Shown here one piece after another: positions 4,323 to 23,094 of a stretch of DNA of 64,000 nt. Made by a program: the position numbers and the translations under genes. The stretch covers positions 736,001-800,000 of the forward strand of contig CAVTRC010000001.1 of the NCBI GenBank assembly GCA_963737065.1, read 5' to 3'. The notes beneath the pieces are model-generated. The model had not been told where the DNA came from. It saw only the letters and a program-made list of their open reading frames with translations, and searched no databases. Origin of the DNA: Candidatus Eremiobacteria bacterium (GTDB taxonomy: Bacteria; Vulcanimicrobiota; Vulcanimicrobiia; Vulcanimicrobiales; Vulcanimicrobiaceae). Position 1 is the stretch's first letter. Each line of letters starts with the position of its first letter.

Positions 4323-5429
4323 ATGGAAATCGATTCGAGCATCACCCGCGCCTTGAAAGTCCTTGCAATTGCGGCGCTATCGATCGGGCTGTTGATGCTT
4401 TTCGTTGAAGCGCTTCGTCTACTCGGAACGAGCGGCCTCGTCATCCTCGCCTCGATCGTGATCGCGTACTTGATAGCTCCGATCGTCGGTGTGCTGCGAC
4501 GCCGGATGCCGATGTGGGCGGCGCTGCTCGTCACGTATGTGGGGTTCGCCGCGGTCGTGCTGGTTGCGTTCTTCGCGATCGTGCCGCCGCTGTTCAACGA
4601 GGCACGTTCGCTGATCTCCGATCTGCCCGCCGCGTTTACGTACTTGCAAAACGAGATTCTCAATCCCAAAAACCCGTTCGTCGCCAAACTTCCGCCGGCC
4701 GTTATCGAACAAATCAAAACGTTGCCGTCGCAAATTAATGCGTTCGTTGCAAAGTACGGGTTCGGCGTCGCGCAGGCGACGATCGGCGGTTTGTTCTCCG
4801 TCGTAACGCTGTTCTTGTCGCTGATCATCGTTCCGGTATTGTCCGCGTACTTCTTTTTCGACACGGCGGAGATAAAACGTGGATTCTTGGGCATCGTTCC
4901 GCGTGCCGCGCGGCCGCGGACGGCCGCAATCCTTGCGGATCTGAACACTACGCTGGGCGCGTTCGTGCGTGGCCAAGCACTCGATGGGTTGATCCTCGGC
5001 GCATTGATCGCAATCATGCTAGCAATCATGCACGTTCGCTACGCGCTCCTCATCGGTGTAGCGTGCGGAATTTTGAACCTCATTCCGTATGTCGGCGCGC
5101 TGATCGGCTTCGTTCCCGCAGTTGTGCTTGCACTCGTCTTCAACGGCTGGCAAAATGCGGTCATCGTCGCGATTCTCTTCTGCGTCATTCAGCAACTCGA
5201 CGGAAATGTGATCTTGCCGCGCGTGATGAAAGGCAGCGTGCAACTCTCGCCGCTCGTCATCATCATCGCGATCTTGATCGGTTCGGCATATTTCGGCGTC
5301 ATCGGGACGTTTCTCGCCGTTCCTGTCGCGGCGATACTGCGCGTGCTAAAGCTTCACTTCGCGCCCGCGCCGACGCCCGCACAACTAGCCACCGACGAAA
5401 AGCGCGTCACGGCGCTCGAACTGCTCTAG
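4323..5429 (+). CDS. AI-2E family (PerM-like) transporter
   Basis: Multi-TM; FVRGQ, LNLIPYVG, QQLDGNVILPRVM, LAVPVAAIL. Confidence 0.92.
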   Translation: MEIDSSITRALKVLAIAALSIGLLMLFVEALRLLGTSGLVILASIVIAYLIAPIVGVLRRRMPMWAALLVTYVGFAAVVLVAFFAIVPPLFNEARSLISDLPAAFTYLQNEILNPKNPFVAKLPPAVIEQIKTLPSQINAFVAKYGFGVAQATIGGLFSVVTLFLSLIIVPVLSAYFFFDTAEIKRGFLGIVPRAARPRTAAILADLNTTLGAFVRGQALDGLILGALIAIMLAIMHVRYALLIGVACGILNLIPYVGALIGFVPAVVLALVFNGWQNAVIVAILFCVIQQLDGNVILPRVMKGSVQLSPLVIIIAILIGSAYFGVIGTFLAVPVAAILRVLKLHFAPAPTPAQLATDEKRVTALELL

Positions 5430-8400
5430 GTTGTGGCTACCGGGCAGAATAATGCCCGCCAGATTGAGCGGATCGTACGCCGTCACGGCTGATAGTTCGC
5501 TCTCATCGTGATTACGTCGCGATGCGCGCAATGCATCGACCGCCTCGGGAAGCGCAAACTGTTCGCCGACATACCCGCTGACAAACCGTCCGCCGCGCAC
5601 TTCGCCGCGCGCTTCCATGCGGCGCAGCGCAAGCAGCAACTCGCGCCACCGGGGTGCGAGCGTTTCGCGCGCCACGACGTCGCGGAATACGATACCCCAT
5701 CGCTTGAGCAAACGGCGAGCGAACGTGTCGGCGTCGATTTTTTCCGTCGCGGAATCGATGCACGCCCACCGGCCCCCCGAGGATCGTGGCCGCGCGCGCA
5801 AGCCTTTTTCGCCAAGACGGCGCTTAGCGTCGATGAGCGAGCGCAGCGCATCGAAGCCATCGGCGGTCACGAGCCCGGCCGCGACCAACTGCCACAGCGC
5901 TTCTTCGACTTCCGCCGGAAGCCGTTTGGTCCCGCGAACGATATCGGCGAAGAACGGTGCACCCTTACGCGCAATTTCTTCGAACACGTCTTGCGCTGCG
6001 GGCGAAAGACCGCTCGTTTTGAACTCGTTGCGAACGATCAGTTCGTGCGCATGTTCACGCGTGAAGAGCGAAATCGGCGCCAGCTTCGTTGGACGCACGC
6101 GACGTTGCGCTTCGTTTGCCGGATCGAGCGCCGGGTGCGGCGAGAGCCGTCCCCACATCACTTCGCCCGAATAGCACAAATGATCGAGGAACTCGCGCCG
6201 GTAGTTCGCGACGCGGGACGGAAGAATCTGCGCTTCCCATGCCGCGGCTGGAATCTCGTAACCTTCCAACTGGCGAATCACCTGCAACGTGCCGTCGACA
6301 CCGTGCAATCGAGCAAGAGGCGCGACGTGTTGCCAGGAGTGCAAAAAGCGAACGAACTGCGCCGACGTGACCGGTTCGATTTCCCGCCGCAGTTGTCCAA
6401 TCGTACGTCGATGAATGCGCGCGATTACCCGCCGGTTACACCACTCTTCTTCCGGGCCGAGAAAACGCCCGCGCAACACCTGGCCTTGCGTTTCGAGGCG
6501 AAGCAACGCCGCTTCGACGTCTGCCGGTTCGATCGCGAGACGCTCCGCGATCGAAAGCGACGTCGCAGGACCGGTCGATTCCATCCACCCGCGCAGGATT
6601 TCAGCGACCGCTTCCTCTTGCGACTGCGCCGCACGTTCGCTCGTCACGGCAGCGATCTGCGGATCGAACGTCGCATCGGGATACGCCAAGCGCGCGATAT
6701 CGAGCCGCTCGGCGCTCGTCCAGAACGGCGCGCCGCGTGTCGCGAGCGTCGTGGCACGATGCTGCGCCACGAGCTCGTCGTAGAACGGCCGCCAGTCGCT
6801 GCACGGCGGCGCGACGACGAGCGTTGCAAGCGCATCGTGCAGTTCGTCCGCGTCTCGCACGATCGGCCACGACTCTTCCGCGACCTCCGCGATGATCGCT
6901 CCGTCCAGAATTCCCGCGCCGTCGACGTCGTCGCGAATCGTGCGGCGTAATTGAACGGCGCGCGCGCGCCGTTCCTCGAGCGGCGCATCATCGAGGTACG
7001 CATATGGATTCGCATTGAGAATCTCGTGACAGAACGGCGAGGGTTCCGGCGTATCAACCCCTACGGTTCGTATTACGCCGCTCTCTATCCGGCGCAGGAT
7101 GTCGAGCAAGCCGTCGAGATCCATCGCCTCGTGCAGACAATTACCGATCGTTTCCCGCACGAGCACGTGGTTGGGGATCCGAATCGGCCCGCTCAAGTTT
7201 TCAGCGCACGCCGCTTGATCGGGAAACACGGCCGCGACGAGGTCGTCGGCGCGCATCCGTTGCAGTTGCGGCGGCACTTTGCGTCCGCCGCGCATGCGCG
7301 TGATCGCGAGCGCGCGCGTCGCGTTCCACCGCCAGCGCGCACCGAACATCGGCGCGGCGAGCAAGGCCTGCGTCAACGCGTACTCGACGCTCGTGGACTT
7401 GACGTATTCGAAGACCACGTCCAGCGGAAACGCGTGCTGCTCCGTGAGCGATAAGACGATGCCGTTGTCCGTTGCGGCCGCTTGCAGCTCGACGTTGAAC
7501 GAACGGCAAAACCGCTTGCGCAGCGCGAGACCCCACGCGCGATTGACCCGCGCACCGAATGGCGTGTGCAGAATCAGCTGCATGCCGCCGCCTTCATCGA
7601 AAAATCGTTCGGCAACCAACGTCTCATCGGTCGGCACGACGCCGAGAATCTTTTTGCCCGCGCGCACATACGCGATGAGCTGGTCGGCACCCCCATCCTC
7701 GAGCGCGCATTCCGTGATGAGAAACTCGCGTGCATCGGCGTCGCCTCGTTCGTCGATCGCCCGGCGCACGCAGCTCACTTCGTGCGAAAGCTCGAGCGTG
7801 CGTCCGGGACCTTCACCGTTCCAGAACGGCACCGTCGGCGGCGCGCCGTGCGCGTCTTCAACGCGGACCACGCCGGGTTCGACGCGGCGAATTCGCCACG
7901 AGTTCGTTCCAAGCATGAAGATATCGCCCGCTAGGCTTTCCACGGCGAAATCTTCATCGAGCGTTCCGACGATGTGCCCGTCCGGCTCCGCGACGACGTT
8001 GTAATTCGCAGTTTCGGGGATTGCTCCGCCGGAGGTGATCGCGGCCATTCGCGCACCGCGCCGTCCGCGCAACCGCCCGTTGACCCGGTCGTAATGCAGA
8101 TACGCGCCGCTTCGGCCACGCGAGGTCGCAACGCCGTCGGCGAGCATGTCGATGACATCGTCGAAGTCTTTCCGCTCTAAATCGCGATACGGATATGCAC
8201 TTCGAACAAGACCGTACAAATCGTCTGCAATCCATTCGCCGGCACCGCACGCGGCGACGATGTGCTGCGCCAAAATGTCGAGCGGCGACGATGGAATCTT
8301 CAGTGTGTCCATCGCGCCGTTGCGAATCGCGCGCACGAGCGCCGCGCATTCCAGCAAGTCGTCACGCGTTGTGGGAAAGAAACGGCCCTCCGGTTTTGCG

Positions 8401-9494
8401 CCGACCCAGTGCCCCGAACGCCCAATGCGTTGCAATGCAACCGCAATCGAACGCGTGCTTCCGAGTTGGACGACGAGATCGACCGACCCGATATCGATCC
8501 CGAGTTCCAACGAGGCAGTCGCGACGACCGCCTTCAACTCGCCGTTCTTCAGCCGGTTTTCGGCCTCGAATCGCTTCTCTTTCGCTAAGCTCCCATGATG
8601 CGGGAGAACGGCATTCACGCCCAAACGCTCCGAAAGCGCGAAGGCAACGCGTTCGCTCATCCGCCGCGTGCCGACGAACACGAGCGTCGTGCGATTGGCG
8701 AGGATCAATTCCGCGACGCGATCGTACGTCTCGCCCCACAGTTCATTGCTCGCCACCGGGCCCAGCTCGTCTTTCGGCACTTCGATCGCAAGTGTCATCG
8801 GCCGCCGGCTACCAATGTCGAGGACGCGGGCGTCCCGGCTCAAGAATTCTGCGACGTCTTCCAACGGACGTACCGTCGCCGACAGCCCGATCCGTTGCGG
8901 CTTCCGTCCGGATCTCTCTTGAACGAGCGCATCCAGCCGCGCGAGCGTGAGCGCGAGATGCGATCCGCGCTTGTCGGCGACCATCGCGTGAATCTCGTCG
9001 ACGATGACGGTCGACACGTTGGTAAACAATGCGCGCGACTTCTCTGCCGTCAACAGAATGAAGAGTGATTCGGGCGTCGTCACGAGCACGTGGGGCGGTT
9101 TGCGCAGCATGCGTTGACGCTCCACCGTCGTCGTATCGCCCGTCCGGACGGCGGTACGAATCGGCGGAAGTTCGAGGCCTTGCTGACCGGCGAGCGCGTA
9201 AATTTCACCGAGCGGCGTCTCGAGATTCTTGTGAATGTCGTTCGTCAGCGCTTTGAGCGGCGATACGTACACGACGCGCGTTTCATCGAGGAGCGTTCCC
9301 TCCGCCGCACGAGCGACCAGCTCGTCGAGGCAAATCGAAAACGCAGCAAGCGTTTTCCCCGAGCCGGTCGGCGCGGAAATCAAGACGTCTTGGCCACCGC
9401 GAATAACCGGCCAGCCTTGAAGTTGCGGCTCCGTCGGTCTGCCGTACCGCGTGCCGAACCACTCGCGTATGAGCGGGTGGAATGCGTCGATCAT
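5385..9494 (-). CDS. lhr: Lhr-family DEAD/DEAH-box helicase
   Basis: APTGSGKT, YVSPLKAL, RTGDT, DEIH, GLSAT, HHGSL, LELGIDIG, QRIGRSGH; C-terminal winged-helix region 'RGGRFV'. Confidence 0.93.
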   Translation of the reverse strand: MIDAFHPLIREWFGTRYGRPTEPQLQGWPVIRGGQDVLISAPTGSGKTLAAFSICLDELVARAAEGTLLDETRVVYVSPLKALTNDIHKNLETPLGEIYALAGQQGLELPPIRTAVRTGDTTTVERQRMLRKPPHVLVTTPESLFILLTAEKSRALFTNVSTVIVDEIHAMVADKRGSHLALTLARLDALVQERSGRKPQRIGLSATVRPLEDVAEFLSRDARVLDIGSRRPMTLAIEVPKDELGPVASNELWGETYDRVAELILANRTTLVFVGTRRMSERVAFALSERLGVNAVLPHHGSLAKEKRFEAENRLKNGELKAVVATASLELGIDIGSVDLVVQLGSTRSIAVALQRIGRSGHWVGAKPEGRFFPTTRDDLLECAALVRAIRNGAMDTLKIPSSPLDILAQHIVAACGAGEWIADDLYGLVRSAYPYRDLERKDFDDVIDMLADGVATSRGRSGAYLHYDRVNGRLRGRRGARMAAITSGGAIPETANYNVVAEPDGHIVGTLDEDFAVESLAGDIFMLGTNSWRIRRVEPGVVRVEDAHGAPPTVPFWNGEGPGRTLELSHEVSCVRRAIDERGDADAREFLITECALEDGGADQLIAYVRAGKKILGVVPTDETLVAERFFDEGGGMQLILHTPFGARVNRAWGLALRKRFCRSFNVELQAAATDNGIVLSLTEQHAFPLDVVFEYVKSTSVEYALTQALLAAPMFGARWRWNATRALAITRMRGGRKVPPQLQRMRADDLVAAVFPDQAACAENLSGPIRIPNHVLVRETIGNCLHEAMDLDGLLDILRRIESGVIRTVGVDTPEPSPFCHEILNANPYAYLDDAPLEERRARAVQLRRTIRDDVDGAGILDGAIIAEVAEESWPIVRDADELHDALATLVVAPPCSDWRPFYDELVAQHRATTLATRGAPFWTSAERLDIARLAYPDATFDPQIAAVTSERAAQSQEEAVAEILRGWMESTGPATSLSIAERLAIEPADVEAALLRLETQGQVLRGRFLGPEEEWCNRRVIARIHRRTIGQLRREIEPVTSAQFVRFLHSWQHVAPLARLHGVDGTLQVIRQLEGYEIPAAAWEAQILPSRVANYRREFLDHLCYSGEVMWGRLSPHPALDPANEAQRRVRPTKLAPISLFTREHAHELIVRNEFKTSGLSPAAQDVFEEIARKGAPFFADIVRGTKRLPAEVEEALWQLVAAGLVTADGFDALRSLIDAKRRLGEKGLRARPRSSGGRWACIDSATEKIDADTFARRLLKRWGIVFRDVVARETLAPRWRELLLALRRMEARGEVRGGRFVSGYVGEQFALPEAVDALRASRRNHDESELSAVTAYDPLNLAGIILPGSHNLEQFERRDALFVGG

Positions 9495-9575: not shown

Positions 9576-10010
9576 TTACTTCAGCGGCGTCATCGTTTCG
9601 GGTCCCATGCCGTCAATTTGGATGACGGTCTCTTCCTTGACCATCGCGTAGTGCGGAAGATTCGCCGGAACGCTTACGAAGGTGCCGGCGGGCAACGCCT
9701 TCATTTGGTTTTGATCCTCCGTCTTTCCCAAGCCGACCCACAACGTTCCGGAGATGACCGTGACGTTTTCCGTATCACCGTGAACGTGGGGCGGTAACTT
9801 GGCGCCGGCGGGCAGCTTTAGACGCATGATGTAGATGCCGCTCTTCGTCGGGTCACCGAGGAGCACGGCCATCTGCGCTCCCTGGTATCCGCCGGTGCCG
9901 GCGACCCAATTCGTGGCGTCCGGTGTCGTGATTGCGGGCCCCGTTGCGGCGAGCGACGTGCCGGCAAATACGGCGACCAGCGAGGCGAGAAAAATCACAA
10001 AAACGCGCAT
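9576..10010 (-). CDS. Secreted cupin-domain protein (DUF4437-like)
   Basis: Signal peptide; 'LLGDP..SG.Y.MRLKLP', PPHVH...E..TVISG, PANLPH. Confidence 0.85.
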   Translation of the reverse strand: MRVFVIFLASLVAVFAGTSLAATGPAITTPDATNWVAGTGGYQGAQMAVLLGDPTKSGIYIMRLKLPAGAKLPPHVHGDTENVTVISGTLWVGLGKTEDQNQMKALPAGTFVSVPANLPHYAMVKEETVIQIDGMGPETMTPLK

Positions 10011-10093: not shown

Positions 10094-10978
10094 CTAATTC
10101 GACGAGCCCGCGAACACGCGGCTTTTCAGAAGGTCGTCGGGCGCTAGCGTCATCAAGTCGGTGCGCGTAATTTCGCCTTCGCGATCGAACAGCCGATTCG
10201 CTGCGCGCAAACGGGCGCGGTCGATCGCGTTGCGCACGCTGCGCGCGTTGGCGAAGTTCGGCTGGCGCACCCGGCGCTCGAGGTAGTCGCGAAAAATTCG
10301 TTCCGTTTCCGGTGCGAATTCGTAATTCAGTTGGCGCAGCATCACATGCGCGATGGCGACGAGTTCCTCGATCGTGTAATCCGGGAAATCGATGTGATGA
10401 GCAACTCGCGATCGTAGCCCTGGATTTGCCGTGAAGAATTGCTCCATGCCGCGTTTGTATCCGGCAAAGACGACTACCAGATCGTCGCGTTGCTCCTCCA
10501 TCACTTGGAGTAAGATTTCAATCGCCTCGATGCCGTAGTCGCGCTCGTTTTCCGGCCGGTACAAATAGTACGCTTCGTCGATGAACAGCACGCCGCCCAT
10601 CGCGCGCTTCAAGACTTCCTTCGTCTTCGGCGCCGTATGTCCGACGTATTGTCCGACTAAGTCGTCGCGCGTCGCGACGACGACGTGTCCTTTTCGAACG
10701 TAACCCAGCGCGGCGAGGACCTGCGCCACGCGTAGCGCAACGGTCGTTTTTCCGGTTCCGGGCGGCCCCGTGAACGACATGTGGAGCGGAACCTTCTGCG
10801 TGGCGAGCCCGGCGTCACGGCGCATTCGCTCGACGAGCAAGAGATGAGCGATCTCGCGTATTCGCGTCTTCACCGGCACAAGGCCGACTAACTCGTCGTC
10901 GAGTTGTGCCAGCACATTGCCGACGCCCGACTCGGCAAACACGGCCTTTAGGTCGAAGCGGCGTTCATTCTGAATCAT
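10094..10978 (-). CDS. cbbX: RuBisCO activase CbbX (AAA+)
   Basis: [73 protein letters not shown]. Confidence 0.97.
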
Positions 10979-11294
10979 GAAGAGCCGGTCGATGGACGAT
11001 GAAGCTGAGCGCGGTCGTCTGACGTCCGAGGCTTGCATCGTAAGCGTTCACTTTTACGTAGCAGCCCGAATGCAGCGCTCGCGCGCGGCGAACCTCGCCT
11101 AAGACGGCCGCGGGATCGCGCAGATCGAACATCGGCAAACCGAACATCTCCCAGTAATTGTTGCGCGGGTCCGGGTCATCCGTAAACTCGATCGAGACCG
11201 CCCACCCGTTATCCAACGAATACTCGATCTGCTTGCCGATTTGTTCGTCGGTCAGCGGTGGTAGAAATGAAAACGTTCCTTGAGTGATGTGCAT
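10965..11294 (-). CDS. cbbS: RuBisCO small subunit, red-type, 109 aa (C-terminally short)
   Basis: [63 protein letters not shown]. Confidence 0.96.
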
Positions 11295-11305: not shown

Positions 11306-12799
<1,494 letters not shown>

Positions 12800-12808
12800 T
12801 CACGCTCG

Positions 12809-12875
12809 ATTCTTGCACCGCGACTCATAGGCGTCAAATACATTGTTTTCGCGAACGTATAAATGCAAACTTATG
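12809..12875 (-). promoter_or_regulatory. cbbL promoter: LysR/CbbR box (CATAA-N8-TTATA), -35 TTGACG, 17-nt spacer, -10 AAGAAT
   Basis: Read directly on the minus strand; near-identical counterpart at 13747-13813. Confidence 0.8.
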
Positions 12876-13749
12876 CGTGCTTGAAGCCGCCGCGTTCGCA
12901 GAGGTACGAGACGAACGTGAGCGCCGCGGGCGAAAGCTCCCGCTCGGCGCTCGCGACGGCATGCCACGGGCGCATCAACGGGGTAAGCGGCGTTGCGACT
13001 TCTTCGATGAGCCCGTATTCCAATTCCCGAGTAACGGCATCGCGCGCGAGCAAGGACATCCCGAGTCCGCAGCGGACGCCTTCGCGGATGGCCGTGTTCG
13101 ATCCGACGGTCAAGCACGCGGGCGTGATTCCGGCCATTGAAAAAAAGTCTTCAGTGGTGGAACGCGTCCCAGACCCCGGCTCGCGCAGCAGCCAGGTTGC
13201 ATGAGCGAGATCGGCCAACGTTCGCGCGCCGCTTCCCGGCCGCGCGACGATGACGAGTTCGTTCGGCCGCGTCGCCAGCGTGCGCAGTAGGTGTCCTTCC
13301 GGAGGATGGCCCGCAAGAGCGAGCTCCACTTCCCAGGCATTCAGTAATTCCCAAACGCTGCCGCGATTGCCGATCTCCAGGCCGATTTCGACCGAGCCGC
13401 GCTCGTCGCGGAAACCGCGAAGCAATTCCGGGAGCAGTTGTTCCGCAAGCGTCGTCACCGCAGCGAGGCTCAGGAAAGCATTTCCCTCACCGGACCTGCG
13501 CGCTCGCGAGCATCCTTCTTCGATGAGCGCGAGCGCACGACGCGCCGACTCGACCATGACGCGACCGGCGTCCGTGAGACGCGTACCGCGCCCGTCCCGC
13601 TCGAACAACGCGACGCCCACTTCGCGAGCGAGCGCGGTGAGCGCCGCCGATACTGCCGGCTGCGACACGACCATGCGATCGGCGGCCGCGCGAACCGAGC
13701 CGCTTTTCGCAACTTCGACGAGCGTTCGCAACTGATGCAGCGATGGCAT
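12871..13749 (-). CDS. cbbR: LysR-family regulator CbbR
   Basis: HTH 'SLHQLRTLVEVA..GSVRAAA...VSQPAVS', WLLREPGSGTR; lies inside the cbb locus. Confidence 0.92.
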   Translation of the reverse strand: MPSLHQLRTLVEVAKSGSVRAAADRMVVSQPAVSAALTALAREVGVALFERDGRGTRLTDAGRVMVESARRALALIEEGCSRARRSGEGNAFLSLAAVTTLAEQLLPELLRGFRDERGSVEIGLEIGNRGSVWELLNAWEVELALAGHPPEGHLLRTLATRPNELVIVARPGSGARTLADLAHATWLLREPGSGTRSTTEDFFSMAGITPACLTVGSNTAIREGVRCGLGMSLLARDAVTRELEYGLIEEVATPLTPLMRPWHAVASAERELSPAALTFVSYLCERGGFKHA

Positions 13750-13813
13750 AAAACGGGCCTTATGAATAAGCGAAAATATTTTATTTGACGCCTATGTGTC
13801 GCGGTGCCATGAT
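13747..13813 (+). promoter_or_regulatory. fba-fbp-prk promoter: LysR box CATAA-N8-TTATG, -35 TTGACG, 17-nt spacer, -10 CATGAT
   Basis: Palindrome at 13747-13764 overlapping the cbbR start codon; TTGACG 13785-13790; CATGAT 13808-13813. Confidence 0.8.
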
Positions 13814-13850
13814 ACCACAAAAGTCGCACTTCACCTCGGGAGATGTACAC

Positions 13851-14897
13851 GTGGGCACACATGGCGTTTGCTTGGCGCAAGTCGCCGATTCGCTGGTCGC
13901 TTCCGGTAAAGGCATCCTCGCCGCGGATGAGAGCATCCAAACGTGCAACAAGCGATTCCAAGCCCTCGGGATACCGGCCACGGAAGAAACGCGTCGTGCG
14001 TACCGCGAGCTTCTGTTCACTGCGCCGGGTCTTCGCAGCTACATCAGCGGCGCAATAGTATGCGACGAAACGATGCGGCAAACGACCTCGCGCAACGTGC
14101 GTTTCGTCGATGCATTACAGCGCGAACGCATACTCGTCGGAATCAAGGTAGATACCGGAACCGAATCGTTTCCCGGCTCGCCCGATGAAAAGATCACCAC
14201 GGGACTTGACGGGCTCGCGGAACGGATCGCGGAGTACCGCGCACTCGGAGCGCGTTTTGCCAAATGGCGCGCGGTGATTGCGATCGGCGAGAACCGGCCG
14301 TCGCAACACTGCATCGAGGCTAACGCGTACATGCTCGCGCGCTATGCGCGTATCTGCCAAGAAGGCGGCCTCGTCCCGATCGTCGAGCCCGAAGTGCTCA
14401 TGGACGGTTCGCACGACCTTGCCCGGTGCGCCGAAGTCACCGTGATCACGCTCGCGATCGTGTTCGAACAACTGGATCAGGAACGCGTTTGGCCCGATGA
14501 AATGATTTTGAAGCCGTCGATGGTGATCGAAGGCAGCGCCGCGCCGCTGCAGTCGGACCCCCGCGTGGTTGCGGCCGCGACGGTAACCGCATTGAAGAGA
14601 ACCGTTCCCTCACACCTCGCCGGCATCGCGTTTTTGTCGGGAGGGCAGAGCGCGCTGCGTGCCACGGAAAATCTGCATGCGATCACGCGCCTCGCGGGCG
14701 AGTCGTTGTGGCCGCTTACGTTCTCTTTCGGCCGCGCGCTGCAATCGACGGCGCTCGAATATTGGCGGGGAGCAGATGACCGGGTCGTGGAGGCGCAACG
14801 CAAGCTCGTACGTCGCGCTCGGTGCAACGCTGCCGCAGCGCTCGGAATGTACGAACAATCCATGGAAGAGGGTGCCCGCCAAGCGGTGCCGGCATAG
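13851..14897 (+). CDS. fba: Class I fructose-bisphosphate aldolase
   Basis: GKGILAADES, GIKVDTG, RFAKWRAVI, VPIVEPEVL, ILKPSMV, FLSGGQS, TFSFGRALQ; GTG start 13851 after RBS GGGAG and downstream of the promoter. Confidence 0.95.
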   Translation: MGTHGVCLAQVADSLVASGKGILAADESIQTCNKRFQALGIPATEETRRAYRELLFTAPGLRSYISGAIVCDETMRQTTSRNVRFVDALQRERILVGIKVDTGTESFPGSPDEKITTGLDGLAERIAEYRALGARFAKWRAVIAIGENRPSQHCIEANAYMLARYARICQEGGLVPIVEPEVLMDGSHDLARCAEVTVITLAIVFEQLDQERVWPDEMILKPSMVIEGSAAPLQSDPRVVAAATVTALKRTVPSHLAGIAFLSGGQSALRATENLHAITRLAGESLWPLTFSFGRALQSTALEYWRGADDRVVEAQRKLVRRARCNAAAALGMYEQSMEEGARQAVPA

Positions 14898-15965
14898 ATG
14901 CAACCGCGCACGACGTTCAGCCGCTTCATCACCGAAGATCAGCGACGTAAATACGGCGATCCAAACCTCGTCGCTCTTTTGAACGACGTTCAAAGTGCAT
15001 GCAAGCTGATTGCCTCGTACGTTGCGCGCGCATCGCTCGATCACGGCACGAAGCGTGAAAAAACGTTGAACGTTCACGGCGAACATCAAAAGCCGCTGGA
15101 CGTCATCGCGAACGAGATATTTCTGCGCGAATGCGAGTGGGGCGGACACCTGGCCGGAGTCATATCGGAAGAGATGGCTGAGCCGTACGTCATTCCGCCC
15201 ACGTTTTCCAAAGGCGACTATTTGCTCGTATTCGATCCAGTTGACGGGTCGTCCAACTTCGATGTGAATGTGACCGTCGGGTCGATCTTTTCAATTCTTC
15301 GGTCAACGTCGACCGAGGTCGATGCCGATACGTTTTTGCAGGCCGGGAAGGAACAAGTAGCGGCCGGCTTTGCTCTTTATGGGCCGGCCTCGATGATCGT
15401 GCTCACGCTCGGCGAGGGTGTCTTCGGGTTCACGCTCGACCCGCAAATGGGCGTCTATACGCTCACTCATCCCTTTATGACCATTCCGAATAACGCGCAC
15501 GAATTCGCAATCAACGCGTCAAACGAACGTTTTTGGGAGCCGCCTGTTCGCTGCTACGTCGCTGAGTGCGTACAAGGAAAGTCCGGTCCGCGCGGGGCCG
15601 ACTTCAATATGCGGTGGATTGCATCGCTCGTGGCCGAGGTGTATCGCATTCTCATTCGCGGCGGCGTCTTCATGTATCCGCGCGACAAGCGCGAGCCGCT
15701 CAATCCCGGCCGGTTGCGCCTGCTCTACGAAGCAAATCCAATGGCGATGATCATCGAACAAGCCGGCGGTTTGGCGTCGACCGGGCGCGAGCGAATTCTC
15801 GATATCGTTCCCTCCGCGATCCATCAAAAAGTGCCGCTGATCCTCGGTTCTGCATGCGAGGTCGAACGCGTCTGCAGCTATCATGCGACGTACGATCGCG
15901 GCGAAGCTTTGACGTTCGCTACGCCGCTCTTCAATCAACGCTCGCTTCTGCGCGCTACCCCGTAG
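14898..15965 (+). CDS. fbp: Class 1 fructose-1,6-bisphosphatase (CbbF-like FBPase/SBPase)
   Basis: QKPLDVIAN, SEEM, FDPVDGSSN, FNMRWIASLVAEVYRIL, RLRLLYEANP. Confidence 0.96.
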   Translation: MQPRTTFSRFITEDQRRKYGDPNLVALLNDVQSACKLIASYVARASLDHGTKREKTLNVHGEHQKPLDVIANEIFLRECEWGGHLAGVISEEMAEPYVIPPTFSKGDYLLVFDPVDGSSNFDVNVTVGSIFSILRSTSTEVDADTFLQAGKEQVAAGFALYGPASMIVLTLGEGVFGFTLDPQMGVYTLTHPFMTIPNNAHEFAINASNERFWEPPVRCYVAECVQGKSGPRGADFNMRWIASLVAEVYRILIRGGVFMYPRDKREPLNPGRLRLLYEANPMAMIIEQAGGLASTGRERILDIVPSAIHQKVPLILGSACEVERVCSYHATYDRGEALTFATPLFNQRSLLRATP

Positions 15966-15975
15966 CGGAGACACC

Positions 15976-16895
15976 ATGTCCGTCAAGCATCCGATCATCG
16001 GCGTCACGGGATCGTCGGGCGCCGGCACTACGACCGTGCGAACGACGTTTTCGCAGATATTCCGGCGCGAACGGATTGCAGCAACGATTGTCGAGGGCGA
16101 CGCTTTTCATCGATATTCGCGCGAGGAGATGCGCCGGCAACTCGATGGCGCGCATGAGCGAGGCGACCCGCATTTCAGCCACTTCGGCCCCGAGGCCAAT
16201 CTCTTCGTCGAGTTGCAAGCGCTCTTTGAAAGTTACGCGCGTAACGGCTCCGGAAAGGTTCGCGCGTACCTGCATGACGAGAACGACGCGGCTCCATATC
16301 AGCAAGTTCCGGGAACGTTCACACCGTGGATGGATCTGGCACCCGGCGAGCGATCTGCTCTTCTACGAGGGCTTGCACGGCGCCGTGGTCACGGACAAGA
16401 TCGACGTCGCGCGCTACGTCGACCTGCTCATCGGGGTCGTGCCGTCGGTCAATCTCGAGTGGATTCAAAAACTCCATCGCGACAAGACGCAGCGTGGTCA
16501 CTCGCACGAGGCCGTCGTCGATACGATTCTGCGCCGAATGCCCGACTACGTGAACTATATCTGCCCGCAGTTTTCACGAACCGATGTGAACTTTCAGCGC
16601 GTTCCAATCGTCGATACGTCGAACCCCTTCGTCGCGCGTGCGATTCCGGCCGCGGATGAGAGTATGCTCGTTATCCGTTTCCGAAACCCGAAGAGAGATC
16701 GACTTTCCGTATTTGCTCGCGATGCTGCACGGTTCGTTTATGTCACGGCAGAACACGATCGTGTGTCCGGGCGGAAAGATGGACCTCGCGATGCAGTTGA
16801 TTTTCACGCCGATGATTCTGCAACTCATGGACCGCAAGAAGCGCATGTTGCCGCAGCCGATCCAAGGCGGGACGCGGGAACCGGTTCTTTCCTGA
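15976..16895 (+). CDS. prk: Phosphoribulokinase, with two apparent +1 frameshifts (~16348, ~16694)
   Basis: Three consecutive frames join to a full PRK: MSVKHPIIGVTGSSGAGTT...TFTPW / SDLLFYEGLHG...NLEWIQK..RD...PQFSRTDVNFQRVP / IDFPYLL..LHGSFMSR. Confidence 0.93.
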
Positions 16896-16910: not shown

Positions 16911-17624
16911 GTGCGAACGTTCTCGGTACAACTTGCATCGACATGGAAACCGGAACGCTCCGCATTCGTAACGATCGTTATCGACGTCTTGCGCGCGACG
17001 ACGGTCATCGCTACGGCGCTTGCCAACGGCGCGACGCGAGTCGTCCCGACGATCGACATCAACGAAGCGCTCGCGTCACGGCAACGCTTCGGTCGCGACG
17101 TGGTTCTCGGCGGAGAACGGAACACTACTCGAATCGAGGGCTTCGACCTCGGCAACTCGCCCGCCGAATATACCGCGCGCCGAGTGAACGAAAAAATCGT
17201 CGTCCTGACCACGACGAATGGAACGCGCGCTATTCATGTCGCAGCACAATGTTCCGCGCAACTCTATACCGGCGCGCTCGTGAACGCGTCCGCAACCGCC
17301 GAGCGTGCGTGCACGCACGAACTTCCGATCGTTGCCCTCTGCGCCGGAACACAAGGCGAGTTCAGCTTGGAGGATTGGATTTGCGCGGGAGCTTTGGCCG
17401 ATGCGTGCGCGAAGAAAGGGCTCTCGCTCGACGATGCCGCAATCGCGGCGGCCGAATTATTCCGCGCTAAACGCACCGGCCTCTATCACGCGATCAGCGG
17501 CGGCAAACACGCCCAAATCCTCATCGAGAACGGCTTCGCAGGCGACGTCGAGTTCTCGGCCACGCTTGACCGTTACGATGTCGCTCCGGCTTTCGCCGGC
17601 GGCTCGCTGCAACGCGAGCGCTAA
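16911..17624 (+). CDS. comB: 2-phosphosulfolactate phosphatase (ComB) family phosphatase
   Basis: VIDVLRATT, LGGER, FDLGNSP, TTTNGTRA, FSLEDWICAG. Confidence 0.9.
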   Translation: MRTFSVQLASTWKPERSAFVTIVIDVLRATTVIATALANGATRVVPTIDINEALASRQRFGRDVVLGGERNTTRIEGFDLGNSPAEYTARRVNEKIVVLTTTNGTRAIHVAAQCSAQLYTGALVNASATAERACTHELPIVALCAGTQGEFSLEDWICAGALADACAKKGLSLDDAAIAAAELFRAKRTGLYHAISGGKHAQILIENGFAGDVEFSATLDRYDVAPAFAGGSLQRER

Positions 17625-18558: not shown

Positions 18559-19594
18559 GTGGCTATCAAAAAGCGAAACCGGCACAGCGCTTCTTCTTTA
18601 GAGCGGCGCGGGACTAAGCGACGAGCAACTCGTTGCGATCCTGCGAACGATGCTGATGCACCGTCGCTTGGAAGGTCGCGGCTTCGAACTGAATCGGCAA
18701 GGGAAGATTCCGTTCGCATCGGCCGGCGAAGGTCATGAAGCGGTTCAAGCCGGCGCGGCGATGGCGTTCGAGCGCGGCAAGGATATCCTCGTTCCGTACT
18801 ACCGCGATCTCGGACTCGACATCGGCATCGGGCTTTCACCGTTCGAGGTGCTGCTTTCACTTTTTGCGCGCGCTGGAGATCAATCCGGTGGGCGTCAATT
18901 TCCGCACCACTATGCGAGCAAAAGACTCGGCCTGTACTCGATCAGCTCCGTTCTTGCCGCGCAGCTCCCGCACGCCGTCGGCGCCGCGTATGCGCTGAAG
19001 TACCGCGAAGAAACCGGGCGGGCCGTGCTCGCAACCGTTGGCGACGGCGCGACGTCCGAAGGCGAGTGGCATGAGTCAATGAATTTCGCGGCGATCCACA
19101 AGCTACCGATCGTGTTCCTCTGCGAGAACAACGAATGGGCGATCTCGACGCCGCTCGCCAAGCAAATGGCGAATCAGAACATCTACGAGCGCGCCGAAGG
19201 TTACGGCATGCCGGGTGTCCAGGTCAACGGGTTCGATCCGATCGCCTGCTATGCGGTGGTGAAGGAGGCCATGGAGCGCGCGCGCTCGGGCGGCGGTCCC
19301 ACCTTCATCGAGGCGAAGTGTTACCGATTCCTCGCGCACACGACGGACGACGACGATCGTACGTATCGGAGCCGCGAGGAGGTCGCGGACCGGCGCAGGG
19401 ACGACCCGGTTCCCAACTTCCAACGCCTGCTCGTCGAACACGGTGTGCTGACGCCCGAGGGCCTTGAAGATTTGAAGCGTTCCGTCCTGACGGAGGCGAA
19501 CGAAGCCACGGACCGGGCGGAATCGATGCCGTATCCGGCTCCGCACGACCTCTACACCGATGTGTACGCGGATTCGTATCAGCCCTGGCGCTGA
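18559..19594 (+). CDS. 2-oxoacid (branched-chain type) dehydrogenase E1 alpha, copy 1; N-terminal ~30 codons frameshifted
   Basis: LNRQGKIPF, PYYRD, GDGATSEGEWHE, ENNEWAISTP, YRFLAHT; upstream GTG 18559 and GLSDEQL segment match copy 2. Confidence 0.9.
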
Positions 19595-19611
19595 TGCGCT
19601 GACGCGTGCTT

Positions 19612-19637
19612 CGTGGTTCGACAGGCTCACCATGACA
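19612..19637. repeat. REP-like short element (TGGTTCGACAGGCTCACCATGAC)
   Basis: Resembles the widespread 'TTCGACA.GCTCA' REP-like repeat family; reverse strand reads MVSLSNH; only one copy noticed. Confidence 0.55.
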
Positions 19638-19653
19638 CGGGGAACGAAACAAC

Positions 19654-20680
19654 GTGGCTAAAACGGACGTAACGGCGAAGGGCGTAGATCGTCACGGGCT
19701 GACGGACGAGCAGTTGCAGCAAATCTTTCGGAACATGCTGCTGCAGCGTCAACTCGACAATCGCGGCTTTCAACTCAACCGCCAAGGCAAAGTGCCGTTC
19801 GCGCTCGGCAGCGAGGGACACGAAGCGCTGCAAGCCGGCGCGGCGATGGCGTTTCATCGCGGCAAAGACATCCTCGCGCCGTACTATCGCGATCTCGGTC
19901 TCGCGGTCGGCATCGGGCTCACGCCGTACGAGATCATGCTCTCGATCTTTGCGCGACGCGACGATCATAACGGCGGACGTCAGTTTCCGAATCACTATTC
20001 GTCGAAAGCGGCGGGCTTGATGTCGTTCTCATCGATTCTCGCTGCGCACATTCCGCACGCGATAGGCGCTGCATATGCATTGAAGTATCGCGGGGAAACC
20101 GGACGCGCGGTGCTCGTGACCTGCGGCGACGGCACCACGTCCGAAGGCGAATGGCACGAGTCGATGAACTTTGCGGCGATTCACTCATTGCCGCTCGTGA
20201 TGCTCGTCGAGAACAACGAATGGGCGATTTCGACGCCGCTTTCGAAGCAGATGGCGCAACCGGAAATTTGGAAGCGCGCGGCGGGATACGGCATGCCGGG
20301 CAAACGGTTCAACGGCTTCGATCCGATCGAAACGTACGCAAACGTGAACGAAGCCATGGAACGCGCACGCTCGGACGGCGGCCCGACCCTTCTCGAAGGG
20401 ATGTGTTACCGCTTCTTGGCGCACTCCACGGACGACAACGATATGACGTACCGCACGAAAGAGATCGTCGCCGAAGCGCGCAAGAACGATCCGGTGCCGA
20501 AGTTTCAAACGCTGCTGCGTCGAGGACGGCATCATGAGCGAAGCCGACGTCGACGCGATGAAAAAAGACGTGCTGCGCGAGACGAACGAGGCGACCGATA
20601 AAGCCGAAGCCGTTCCATATCCGCAAGCGTCAGATCTCTATAGCAATCTCTACGAGGGAGCCTGGCAGCCGTGGCAGTAA
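19654..20680 (+). CDS. 2-oxoacid dehydrogenase E1 alpha, copy 2; +1 frameshift at ~20518
   Basis: LNRQGKVPF, GDGTTSEGEWHE, YRFLAHS; shifted frame continues VEDGIMSE...YEGAWQPWQ* like the C-terminus of copy 1. Confidence 0.92.
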
Positions 20681-21672
20681 CCGCCGGATCGAAAGTTCTT
20701 AATAATGTCGAGGCCGTACGCGAAACGCTGTACGAAGCGATGAAGAATGACGACCGCACGATCATTCTCGGCGAAGACGTCGGCGCTCGCGGGAATGTCT
20801 TTCTCATCACGAAGGATTTCATCAGCGAGTTCGGTCCGGACCGCGTCATCGACACACCGATCGCGGAAGCGTCCATCGTCGGTATCGCCGTCGGCATGGC
20901 GATGGAAGGCCTGCGCCCGATTGCGGAGATTCAATTCGCCGATTTCATCTATCCGGCGTTCAACCAAATCGTCGGTGAAGCGGCGAAGACACGCTATCGT
21001 TCGAACGGTGAATACACGTGTCCGCTCGTGATTCGGACGCCGTACGGCGGCGGGGTTCGCGGTGCGCTTTCGCACTCGGTCTCGATCGAAGCGTTGTTCT
21101 ACCACGTGCCCGGGTTGAAGATCGTTGCGCCGGCGTTTCCCGCCGACGTGAAGGGTTTGCTCAACGCCGCGATCGACGATCCCGATCCGGTGCTCTTTCT
21201 CGAACACAAGAAGACGTATCGTTTGATTAAGGGTGAAGTGCCCGAGGGTCACTACACGATTCCGATCGGCAAGGCGAACGTTCTCAAGGAAGGCGCTCAG
21301 CTCACCGTCGTGTCGTACGGGCTGTACGTACACTGGGCGCTCGAAGCCGCCAATCAATTGGAGAACGAAGGCATGTCCGTCGAAGTGATCGATCTGCGCT
21401 CCATCCGCCCGATGGATCGCACAACAATTCTCACGAGCGTCGAGAAGACGCGCAAACTGCTCGTCATCCACGAAGACAACAAGTTCGGCGGTATCGGTGC
21501 CGAGATTTCCGCGATGGTCGCGGAAGAAGCGCTCTTCTCGCTCGACGCGCCGATTCGCCGGCTCGCCGCGCCCGACGTCCCGGCGATGGGCTACGCGGAA
21601 CCACTCGAACACGAGTACATGTCGTCCCCGGCCGCGATGGCCGATGCAATGCGCGAGTTGGTGAAATTCTAA
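20671..21672 (+). CDS. 2-oxoacid dehydrogenase E1 beta
   Basis: [45 protein letters not shown]. Confidence 0.95.
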
Positions 21673-23094
21673 TGGCTACAACGATCACGATGCCGCAACT
21701 CGGCGAAACGGTTACCGAAGGCACCGTCGCACAGTGGCTCAAGAACGTCGGCGACACCGTTGAGAAGTACGAGCCGTTTCTCGAAGTATCGACCGATAAG
21801 GTCAATGCGGAAGTCCCCGCACCCGTGACGGGCGTTATCAAAGACGTGCTCGTGAAAGAAGGCGACACGGTCCCGGTCGGTACTGCGATTGCAGTCATCG
21901 AAGAAGTGGACGGCGCAACCGAAGCTGCGCCTGCAGCACAACCACCGTCGACGACTGAATCGATGGCCGCAAGTGCGAACGAAGAGCCCGTTCCCGGGTT
22001 CAACATTCCGCAATTGCCGACGAACCGGCAGCCGCGTCATCGGGTAACGGCCACACGCGCACGGGAACGGCGTGATTCCGAGTTCGTACGGCGCATCCGG
22101 CGGTCTCGAAGGCGCGGAGGACGCGCTTCGCAAGGCGTCGCCGGCGGTGCGCAAACTCGCGCGCGAGAACAACATCGACATTCGAGCGATCCGCGGAACC
22201 GGCACGAACGGACGCGTTACCGCGGAAGACGTCATGGCGGCGGCCGCAATGGGTCCGGCCGCGGCCGTCGGTCAAGCGATTGCGACCGGCACGAATTTCG
22301 GCGCAACGCCGCCGCCGTCGTTTGCAGCCTCCGCGCCGCCCGCGGCTCCCCCGCCGGCGCCGGCCGCGTCCGGTACATCGAGCTACGGCGCACCGATTCC
22401 CGGCACCGTTATTCCGCTCACGCAAGCGCGCCGCATCATCGCGGAACGCATGGTTGAATCGAAGCATACTGCGCCGCATGCGTGGTCGATGGTTTCGATC
22501 GACGTGACGAACGTGTGGAAATGGCGCGCTCGCGAAAAGGATCGCTTCGAACGCGAAACGGGATACAAATTGACGCTTCTGCCGTTCTTCATTCGCGCCG
22601 TGATCGAGTCGATATCGGTATTTCCCTTGATGAACGCAAAGTTTACGGCGGACGGGATCTACGTGAATAAAGACGTCAACATCGGCATCGCGATCGGTCT
22701 CGCGACAAACCTCGTCGTTCCCGTCATCAAGGGTGCCGATGCCTTGTCGATCAAGGGCCTCGCGATTGCGGCAGGCGAGTTGATCGATAAAGCGCGTCGC
22801 AACAAGCTCGGCGTGGACGATCTCGCGGGTGGAACGTTCACCGTGAACAACAACGGCGCGAACGGTTCATGGGCGTCCGCGCCGATCATCAACGGCGGTC
22901 AAGCCGGAATCGTTACGATGGAAACGGTAGAAAAGAAGCTGCTCGTGCGCGAAGACGATTCATTTGCTCCACGTTACGTGATGAACTCGTGCCTCTCGCT
23001 CGACCATCGCGTCGTCGACGGTTACGTCGCAAGCGGCTTCCTCGCCGACCTGAAGAAACGACTCGAAAAAATGGGCCCGGACGGCGCGCTCTAG
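21672..23094 (+). CDS. Dihydrolipoamide acyltransferase E2; net +1 frameshift in the linker (~22026-22060)
   Basis: Lipoyl domain [11 protein letters not shown]...[11 protein letters not shown]3-binding [18 protein letters not shown]; catalytic SLDHRVVDG. Confidence 0.92.

Follow-up and report, generated by a model that had tools for sequence, protein, structure and literature searches.

The locus examined here, within a window of 64,000 nucleotides of a Candidatus Eremiobacteria genome, raises the question of whether a RuBisCO of the red lineage can do without the betaE-betaF hairpin of its small subunit (SSU). According to three papers (PMC9833100, PMC9833052 and PMC11707681), this hairpin is the one major structural feature marking red-type SSUs, is credited with RbcX-independent assembly and is linked to high CO2/O2 specificity. 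PMC11707681 describes a beta-barrel formed by the hairpins at the solvent channel's entrance, and this paper and PMC9833100 present the hairpin as critical for the chaperone-independent assembly of Rhodobacter sphaeroides RuBisCO. Red RuBisCOs are engineering targets for high CO2/O2 specificity. Hairpin transplants have reportedly been engineered and studied. A soil-type bacterium whose sole SSU is hairpin-less and under selection constitutes a natural test of the purpose of the hairpin. The account that we consider probable is that of a form IE RuBisCO whose SSU lost its hairpin by a single deletion at the cbbS-cbbX junction, and which forms an open-channel L8S8 with SSUs docked through their core.

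The small subunit and its operon

The cbbS gene was located on the minus strand at 10965..11294, with its ATG at 11294 and its TGA at 10965-10967. The 109-aa product ends with [13 protein letters not shown], 6 residues past the RP motif that comes after strand betaD. The Pfam model PF00101 (RuBisCO_small) was covered from end to end (model 1-97 of 97 on residues 5-103, E 4.3e-36, 123.2 bits for a curated cut-off of 27 bits). Hence, the canonical CbbS core is complete. The 12 best solved-structure matches, among them 1bxn, 5nv3 and 5n9z, are SSUs of 129-144 aa, which align gap-free with CbbS residues 1-104/106 only and then extend for 25-40 residues more. In the AlphaFold2 model (mean pLDDT 82.7), helices were found at residues 16-28 and 61-74 and strands at 32-38, 79-86 and 93-101, the final residues 106-109 being disordered. 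CbbS thus has red-type nearest relatives and aligns with them gap-free from residue 1, in agreement with the short N-terminus and short betaA-betaB loop of red-type SSUs, but stops where their betaE-betaF hairpin would follow. PF00101 and PF00016 each gave one match in the source genome, which is 95% complete with 3.08 Mb in 2 contigs; as a consequence, cbbS is the only SSU gene of this genome.

Directly downstream of cbbS, as in red-type systems where the CbbX activase is encoded alongside, lies cbbX (10094..10978, minus strand), coding for a 294-aa red-type RuBisCO activase of the AAA+ type according to Pfam. Its residues 8-292 align with residues 11-296 of the PDB chain "Protein CbbX" of 3syk (E 6.3e-117), presumably the R. 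sphaeroides protein. With its ATG at 10978, cbbX shares 14 nt with cbbS, and because the alignment to 3syk indicates a normal CbbX N-terminus, no frameshifted cbbS tail is hidden downstream. The initial annotation had described both this junction and a 109-aa CbbS deprived of its C-terminal hairpin; the 3syk alignment agrees with the former, and the ORF, the Pfam match, the solved-structure alignments and the AlphaFold2 model all agree with the latter.

Upstream, cbbL (11306..12772, minus strand; PF00016, PF02788) codes for a 488-aa form I large subunit that contains all of the motifs [38 protein letters not shown] and QFGGGT. Those expected of a catalytically competent enzyme are found as well, namely DFTKDDE with the carbamylated Lys, [22 protein letters not shown] and FGGG; we take these motifs to correspond to active-site residues. 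A LysR-type, cbbR-like regulator gene (12871..13749, minus strand; HTH_1 and LysR_substrate) is located upstream of cbbL. In the more usual arrangement cbbR is divergent from cbbL, whereas here it shares the cbbL strand and is divergent from a Calvin-cycle block on the plus strand (13785..16659). This block, itself divergent from the cbb operon, comprises genes for a class I fructose-bisphosphate aldolase (fba, 13785-14897, PF00274), FBPase (fbp, 14898-15965, PF00316/PF18913) and phosphoribulokinase (prk, 15976-16659, PF00485). Directly after prk, a gene of the 2-phosphosulfolactate phosphatase family was observed (16911-17624, plus strand; PF04029, E 9e-69), followed by genes of a 2-oxoacid dehydrogenase complex at 18650-23094. 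On the other side, cbbX is followed by the gene of a cupin-domain protein of 144 aa (9576-10010, minus strand; Cupin_7, Cupin_2, DUF4437), the N-terminus of which is hydrophobic and resembles a signal peptide. Such a cupin gene also follows cbbX in G003, the genome of another species of the genus (L004, 2781-3215, plus strand). Farther downstream lies an ORF of 1369 aa (5385-9494, minus strand), the N-terminus of which looks helicase-like by eye and contains a GSGKT motif.

Proposed assembly and the search for a substitute

According to the account considered here, the common ancestor of the source genus would have lost roughly 33-37 codons at the cbbS-cbbX junction through one deletion. The truncated SSU would dock on the large-subunit octamer, between large-subunit dimers, via its conserved core, i.e., the N-terminal arm, helix A, the betaA-betaB loop and strand betaD, yielding L8S8. 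Since no hairpins are present, the beta-barrel at the mouth of the solvent channel could not form; this L8S8 would then be devoid of the eight-stranded beta-barrel plugs at both ends of the central channel, which would stay open as in the prokaryotic green-type enzymes (IA/IB). Folding and assembly would rely on GroEL/ES and on the SSU core alone, and CbbX would remodel the enzyme through the conserved C-terminal tail of CbbL. Without the hairpin, the His of the betaA-betaB loop would become dispensable and be replaced, in the source CbbS by Asp.

Modeling of a 1:1 CbbL-CbbS pair gave an ipSAE of 0.82, the best control reaching 0.05. Such a mark was attained by 116 of 157 solved complexes and by 2 of 215 mismatched pairs. 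At least 98% of contacts agreed among the three runs, with a partner pLDDT of at least 86. This model supports the docking of CbbS on CbbL, and its success may reflect only the likeness to solved RuBisCOs. Because the hairpin is described as critical for assembly, formation of L8S8 in its absence is not guaranteed; given the roles credited to it, a changed assembly dependence, stability or specificity of the hairpin-less enzyme is a reasonable expectation by analogy.

Among known enzymes, the closest solved ones are 1bxn and 5nv3, which we take to be the form IC RuBisCO of Cupriavidus necator and that of R. sphaeroides. They are the best solved matches of CbbS (E 1.6e-40 and 8e-40, gap-free over residues 1-104/106), and their systems are CbbX-dependent and red-type, in line with the cbbX gene of the source operon. 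However, their SSUs, about 60% identical to CbbS, reach 139 and 129 aa including the hairpin. For an open central channel, the structural counterpart is probably the green-type IA/IB enzyme. Prokaryotic green-type SSUs (1rbl, 1svd; 109-111 aa) are similar in length to CbbS and share with it the four-strand/two-helix core and the lack of hairpin. Yet they belong to another lineage (E 1e-15 to 1e-25 versus 1e-40), have longer N-termini and occur in carboxysome or RbcX/Raf1 contexts, whereas CbbS occurs with CbbX.

The function of the hairpin could instead be provided in trans, by a separate peptide or an unrelated protein that plugs the channel or chaperones assembly. The large subunit gave room for such a factor, as no compensating change was seen in it: no otherwise strictly conserved CbbL position was altered in both the source genome and G003, where short-SSU genomes displayed mild differences only (I54, C87, N346, M482), and no convergent CbbL change was found between the two hairpin-less clades described below, except at a V/I site. 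The small conserved cupin gene placed after cbbX in both genomes could also be considered as a candidate, but its product looks exported, judging by eye from its N-terminus, and a meeting with cytosolic RuBisCO is therefore unlikely. Nor was any hairpin-like sequence found elsewhere in the source genome, in which a tblastn search with 113 homologue tails returned nothing significant, as did an HMM of the tail run against the six-frame translation (best E 0.82). A candidate at C2:268010-268135, the best tblastn match (E 0.001 with uncorrected composition and 113 queries), was rejected, as it has an in-frame stop nearby and was missed by the HMM. As for dedicated chaperones, RbcX (PF02341) had no match in the source genome, and the best match of the Raf1 C-terminal domain (PF18087) reached E 0.47 with an internal stop; the lack of an rbcX/raf1-type chaperone gene, which the initial annotation had stated for the locus, is thereby extended to the whole genome. 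Taken with these searches, a factor acting in trans appears very unlikely, and assembly through the SSU core is retained as the preferred reading.

Phylogenetic place and selection on the short form

A CbbL tree was rooted on two form IC sequences (C. necator and Afipia), with SH-aLRT values as support. The source genome and G003 formed a clade (99) that was sister to P0135 (95), and these three sequences fell inside a 41-row clade (99) together with Mycobacterium CbbL, from which the form IC outgroup was excluded. The CbbL tree thus places the enzyme in form IE, of the Eremiobacterota/Actinomycetota type, the name "IE" for this 41-row clade being taken from the literature (PMC9561532, PMC13454268) rather than from a curated reference set. 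Form IE is reported from Eremiobacterota in PMC9561532. P0135 shares its longest contig (21,254 bp) with P0006, a hairpin-bearing SSU of 145 aa, and the two presumably belong to one operon. The named best database matches of CbbS came from Eremiobacterota, Dormibacterota and Actinomycetota, with 69% identity to the SSU of the Mycobacterium cbbLSX operon and about 60% to form IC SSUs (Cupriavidus, Afipia). Alignment with relatives hence agrees with the initial annotation on the absence of the hairpin and makes its placement more precise, the enzyme being form IE by phylogeny with hairpin-bearing next of kin in Eremiobacterota.

In these relatives the hairpin is the rule. It was kept at 11 cbbS loci in 10 related genomes (9 loci in 8 genomes without the unpublished G014 and G059), in 117 of the 120 best database matches and in all 78 parsed loci among the best 80 GTDB species loci, 2 of which were unparsed. 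The three exceptions among the database matches were P0001, P0002 and P0078, the last of which (119 aa) breaks off within the hairpin. Because other form IE members keep the hairpin and the source genome and G003 are nested among them, its loss is derived. Among the relatives searched (the genome set containing G003 and the best GTDB loci), sequence comparison confines the short form to the source genus. In one related genome (G036), two cbbLS copies were observed on separate contigs (L006, L017), with near-identical SSUs of 140 and 139 aa, both hairpin-bearing.

The known form IE operons of Actinomycetota, Eremiobacterota and Dormibacterota, for instance that of the Mycobacterium intracellulare plasmid NZ_CP012886.2 (L019), have their CbbL in the same clade. 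The latter operon resembles the one studied here in its cbbL-cbbS-cbbX order, in an adjoining class I aldolase gene and in an SSU core 69% identical. In contrast, known form IE SSUs have 130-149 aa, a hairpin and a DPHPRN loop, whereas the source CbbS has no hairpin and a DPDPRN loop. Judged from its sequence, CbbS therefore lies inside form IE by descent, yet does not have the structural hallmark of red-type SSUs. No description of a natural red-lineage or form IE SSU without hairpin was found in the open-access literature searched, including a form I kinetic survey (PMC11251275) and a rubisco survey of 2026 (PMC13454268). The initial annotation had allowed that short SSUs might be a documented norm of this clade; no such documentation was found in that literature. 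What is new is a natural hairpin-less SSU of the red lineage, while its components and its probable mechanism do not differ from those of ordinary form I RuBisCO. For annotation, this entails that short SSUs risk being taken for fragments or pseudogenes.

The truncation could mark the onset of pseudogenisation, the lineage being about to abandon autotrophy. Such decay would fit with the hairpin being reported as important for assembly in PMC9833100 and PMC11707681, and with the presence of cbbS in only 2 of the 7 genus genomes searched, the source genome counted. However, the three genes of the operon carry the mark of constraint. Between the source genome and G003, CbbL was 92% and CbbS about 80% identical, and Nei-Gojobori estimates for cbbS (103 codons; pN 0.113, pS 0.664) gave a dN/dS of 0.076, against 0.046 for both cbbL and cbbX, these values being approximate since synonymous sites are near saturation (pS 0.57-0.66). 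Ratios of 0.05-0.08 at such a divergence indicate that cbbS, cbbL and cbbX are all plainly under purifying selection and that cbbS is no relic. Besides, the CbbL catalytic motifs are all intact, cbbX, prk, fbp and fba are intact, and an independent hairpin-less clade has many members and long contigs. Decay is thus most improbable, and a functional enzyme with a derived, hairpin-less SSU remains the reading followed here. The distribution of RuBisCO in the genus is itself patchy, cbbS being found only in the source genome and G003 among G000-G006; hence the genus can do without the operon, and gain by transfer or repeated loss are possible explanations of this pattern.

Recurrent loss, loop residue 42 and the cbbS-cbbX junction

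An exhaustive search of representative sequences returned P0242, an SSU of 110 aa ending in RPRR, with a DPAPRN loop. When it was used as query, about 40 more clusters of 104-115 aa were found among the best 120 matches. The clusters of this second clade have up to 96 members and lie on contigs of up to 4.1 Mb. Among the best 80 loci on JGI metagenome contigs, 10 had cbbL followed by a short cbbS with its stop inside the contig (8 classed by their tail, L102 and L103 by their length), and in 9 of these 10 an AAA+ (cbbX-like) frame came after cbbS. The remaining best-80 loci comprised 59 long ones, 7 without the SSU motif, 3 running off the contig end and 1 unparsed. A member of the second clade (P0432) is labelled as a Streptosporangiaceae MAG. 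In the order of Actinomadura nitritigenes, where cbbS was present in 55 of 301 genomes, no short cbbS was found in the 31 loci examined (the 30 best and L182), 28 having a hairpin and 3 being unparsed. Divergent SSUs of 104-106 aa, 45-52% identical (P0293, P0316, P0321), are also tail-less and may represent deep branches of form I in which no hairpin ever existed.

A CbbL tree of 56 rows, unpublished genomes excluded, required two changes of hairpin state. An AU test rejected a single clade of all 10 short-SSU rows (delta lnL 125.3, p 0.0001), and this rejection held with the unpublished G014 and G059 included (p 0.0008). In the SSU core, the source genus was 81% identical to P0003 and 77% to P0004 (labelled Eremiobacteraeota), both hairpin-bearing, and 66% to P0242. 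Together, the tree, the AU test and these identities indicate that the hairpin was lost at least twice within form IE. The hairpin-less red RuBisCO of the initial annotation is thus real but not unique, metagenomes holding a second, independent and more populous clade, and short SSUs are, on the evidence of these alignments, a recurrent natural variant.

The second clade resembles the source operon in having, in the same order, cbbL, a cbbS of just 102-115 aa and an AAA+ frame, an SSU that ends 1-6 residues past the RP motif and a replaced loop His. It differs from it by its separate origin, by a replacement that is mostly Arg/Ala instead of the Asp/Asn of the source lineage, and by being far more populous. 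One could suppose that the short cbbS was imported from this other, actinobacterial-like clade, with no separate deletion, as the SSUs of either clade stop only a few residues away from the same RP motif and neither clade has His42. Such a transfer is hardly plausible in view of an SSU core closer to the hairpin-bearing P0003 and P0004 than to P0242, of the two changes needed by the CbbL tree with the rejection of one clade (delta lnL 125, p 0.0001-0.0008), and of the unlike replacement residues. Two separate losses are therefore kept as the interpretation.

The residue in question is encoded at 11169..11171 on the minus strand, where CbbS has Asp42 in the betaA-betaB loop (DPDPRN) and all hairpin-bearing relatives have His. 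In the hairpin-bearing set the motif DPHPRN was invariant, while His is replaced by Asp in the source CbbS and by Asn in both that of G003 and P0002. A joint alignment was made of 240 SSU cluster representatives; the counts given here are of related sequences and not of events. His was found at position 42 in 194 of 194 representatives with a tail of at least 20 residues after the RP motif, i.e., with a hairpin. Among the 41 with a tail of at most 6 residues and no hairpin, it was replaced in 39 (R 24, A 9, D 2, N 2, Q 1, S 1) and kept in 2. The 5 representatives with tails of 7-19 residues, probably fragments or frameshifts, had His in 4 cases and Ala in 1. In the 1:1 model, CbbS residues 41-44 lie within the L-S interface. 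Both loss events show replacement of His42 along with loss of the hairpin, which gives independent support, at the level of sequence, for a coupling between the two.

A recurrent loss coupled to one residue is of more interest than a lone truncation. The two independent losses each have a close hairpin-bearing sister and one covarying SSU residue, and these matched natural enzymes make the share of the hairpin in assembly, stability and specificity testable. A broader proposition is put forward tentatively, with slightly more doubt than confidence: hairpin-less form IE would be a distinct, recurrent structural subclass that can do without the hairpin, where hairpin loss and replacement of His42 are coupled and the open-channel L8S8 is measurably altered in assembly, stability or specificity. 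If this were true, His42 and the hairpin would act as a single structural module, and the two natural losses would provide matched pairs of enzymes with and without this module.

For the loss in the source genus, the junction itself is informative. In G003 (2 contigs, among 60 related genomes), cbbS codes for 107 aa, ends in SFMVHRPTPSL* and has its TGA overlapping the cbbX ATG. Every base of the junction has its counterpart in the other genome, apart from an indel of 4 nt directly ahead of the cbbX start, owing to which the final cbbS codons are read in different frames (ALHDSE* in the source genome versus TPSL* in G003). This pattern suggests a single old deletion, after which the tail drifted free of constraint. 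From these alignments, codons 104-109 and the TGA of cbbS (10965..10985, minus strand), which overlap the cbbX ATG (10978-10976), are read as the scar of the ancestral deletion. Besides, a metagenome protein of 106 aa (P0002) that ends in HRPAGE* was seen on 5 independent Logan contigs, and P0241, the protein of G003, falls within its 90% cluster.

That about 100 nt were dropped at this junction in the source assembly is barely credible: the contigs of the only four runs found do cover 11535-11700 (cbbL) alone and not the junction, but the junction recurs in the separate assembly of G003 and in P0002 (5 Logan contigs), the His42 substitution is common to all three short sequences, and the source assembly consists of only 2 contigs. 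The assembly deletion feared in the initial annotation is contradicted by these two other independent assemblies, and its proposal of a natural hairpin-less red-type SSU is upheld by the shared junctions, the purifying selection, the single gene copy and the genome-wide lack of RbcX and Raf1. The four runs, all DNA runs of "plant metagenome" samples from one study, each yielded one contig of about 485 nt identical to cbbL over 166 nt (11535-11700); no RNA run was found. These contigs may be cbbL amplicons; by this identity, a near-identical cbbL was present in the four samples.
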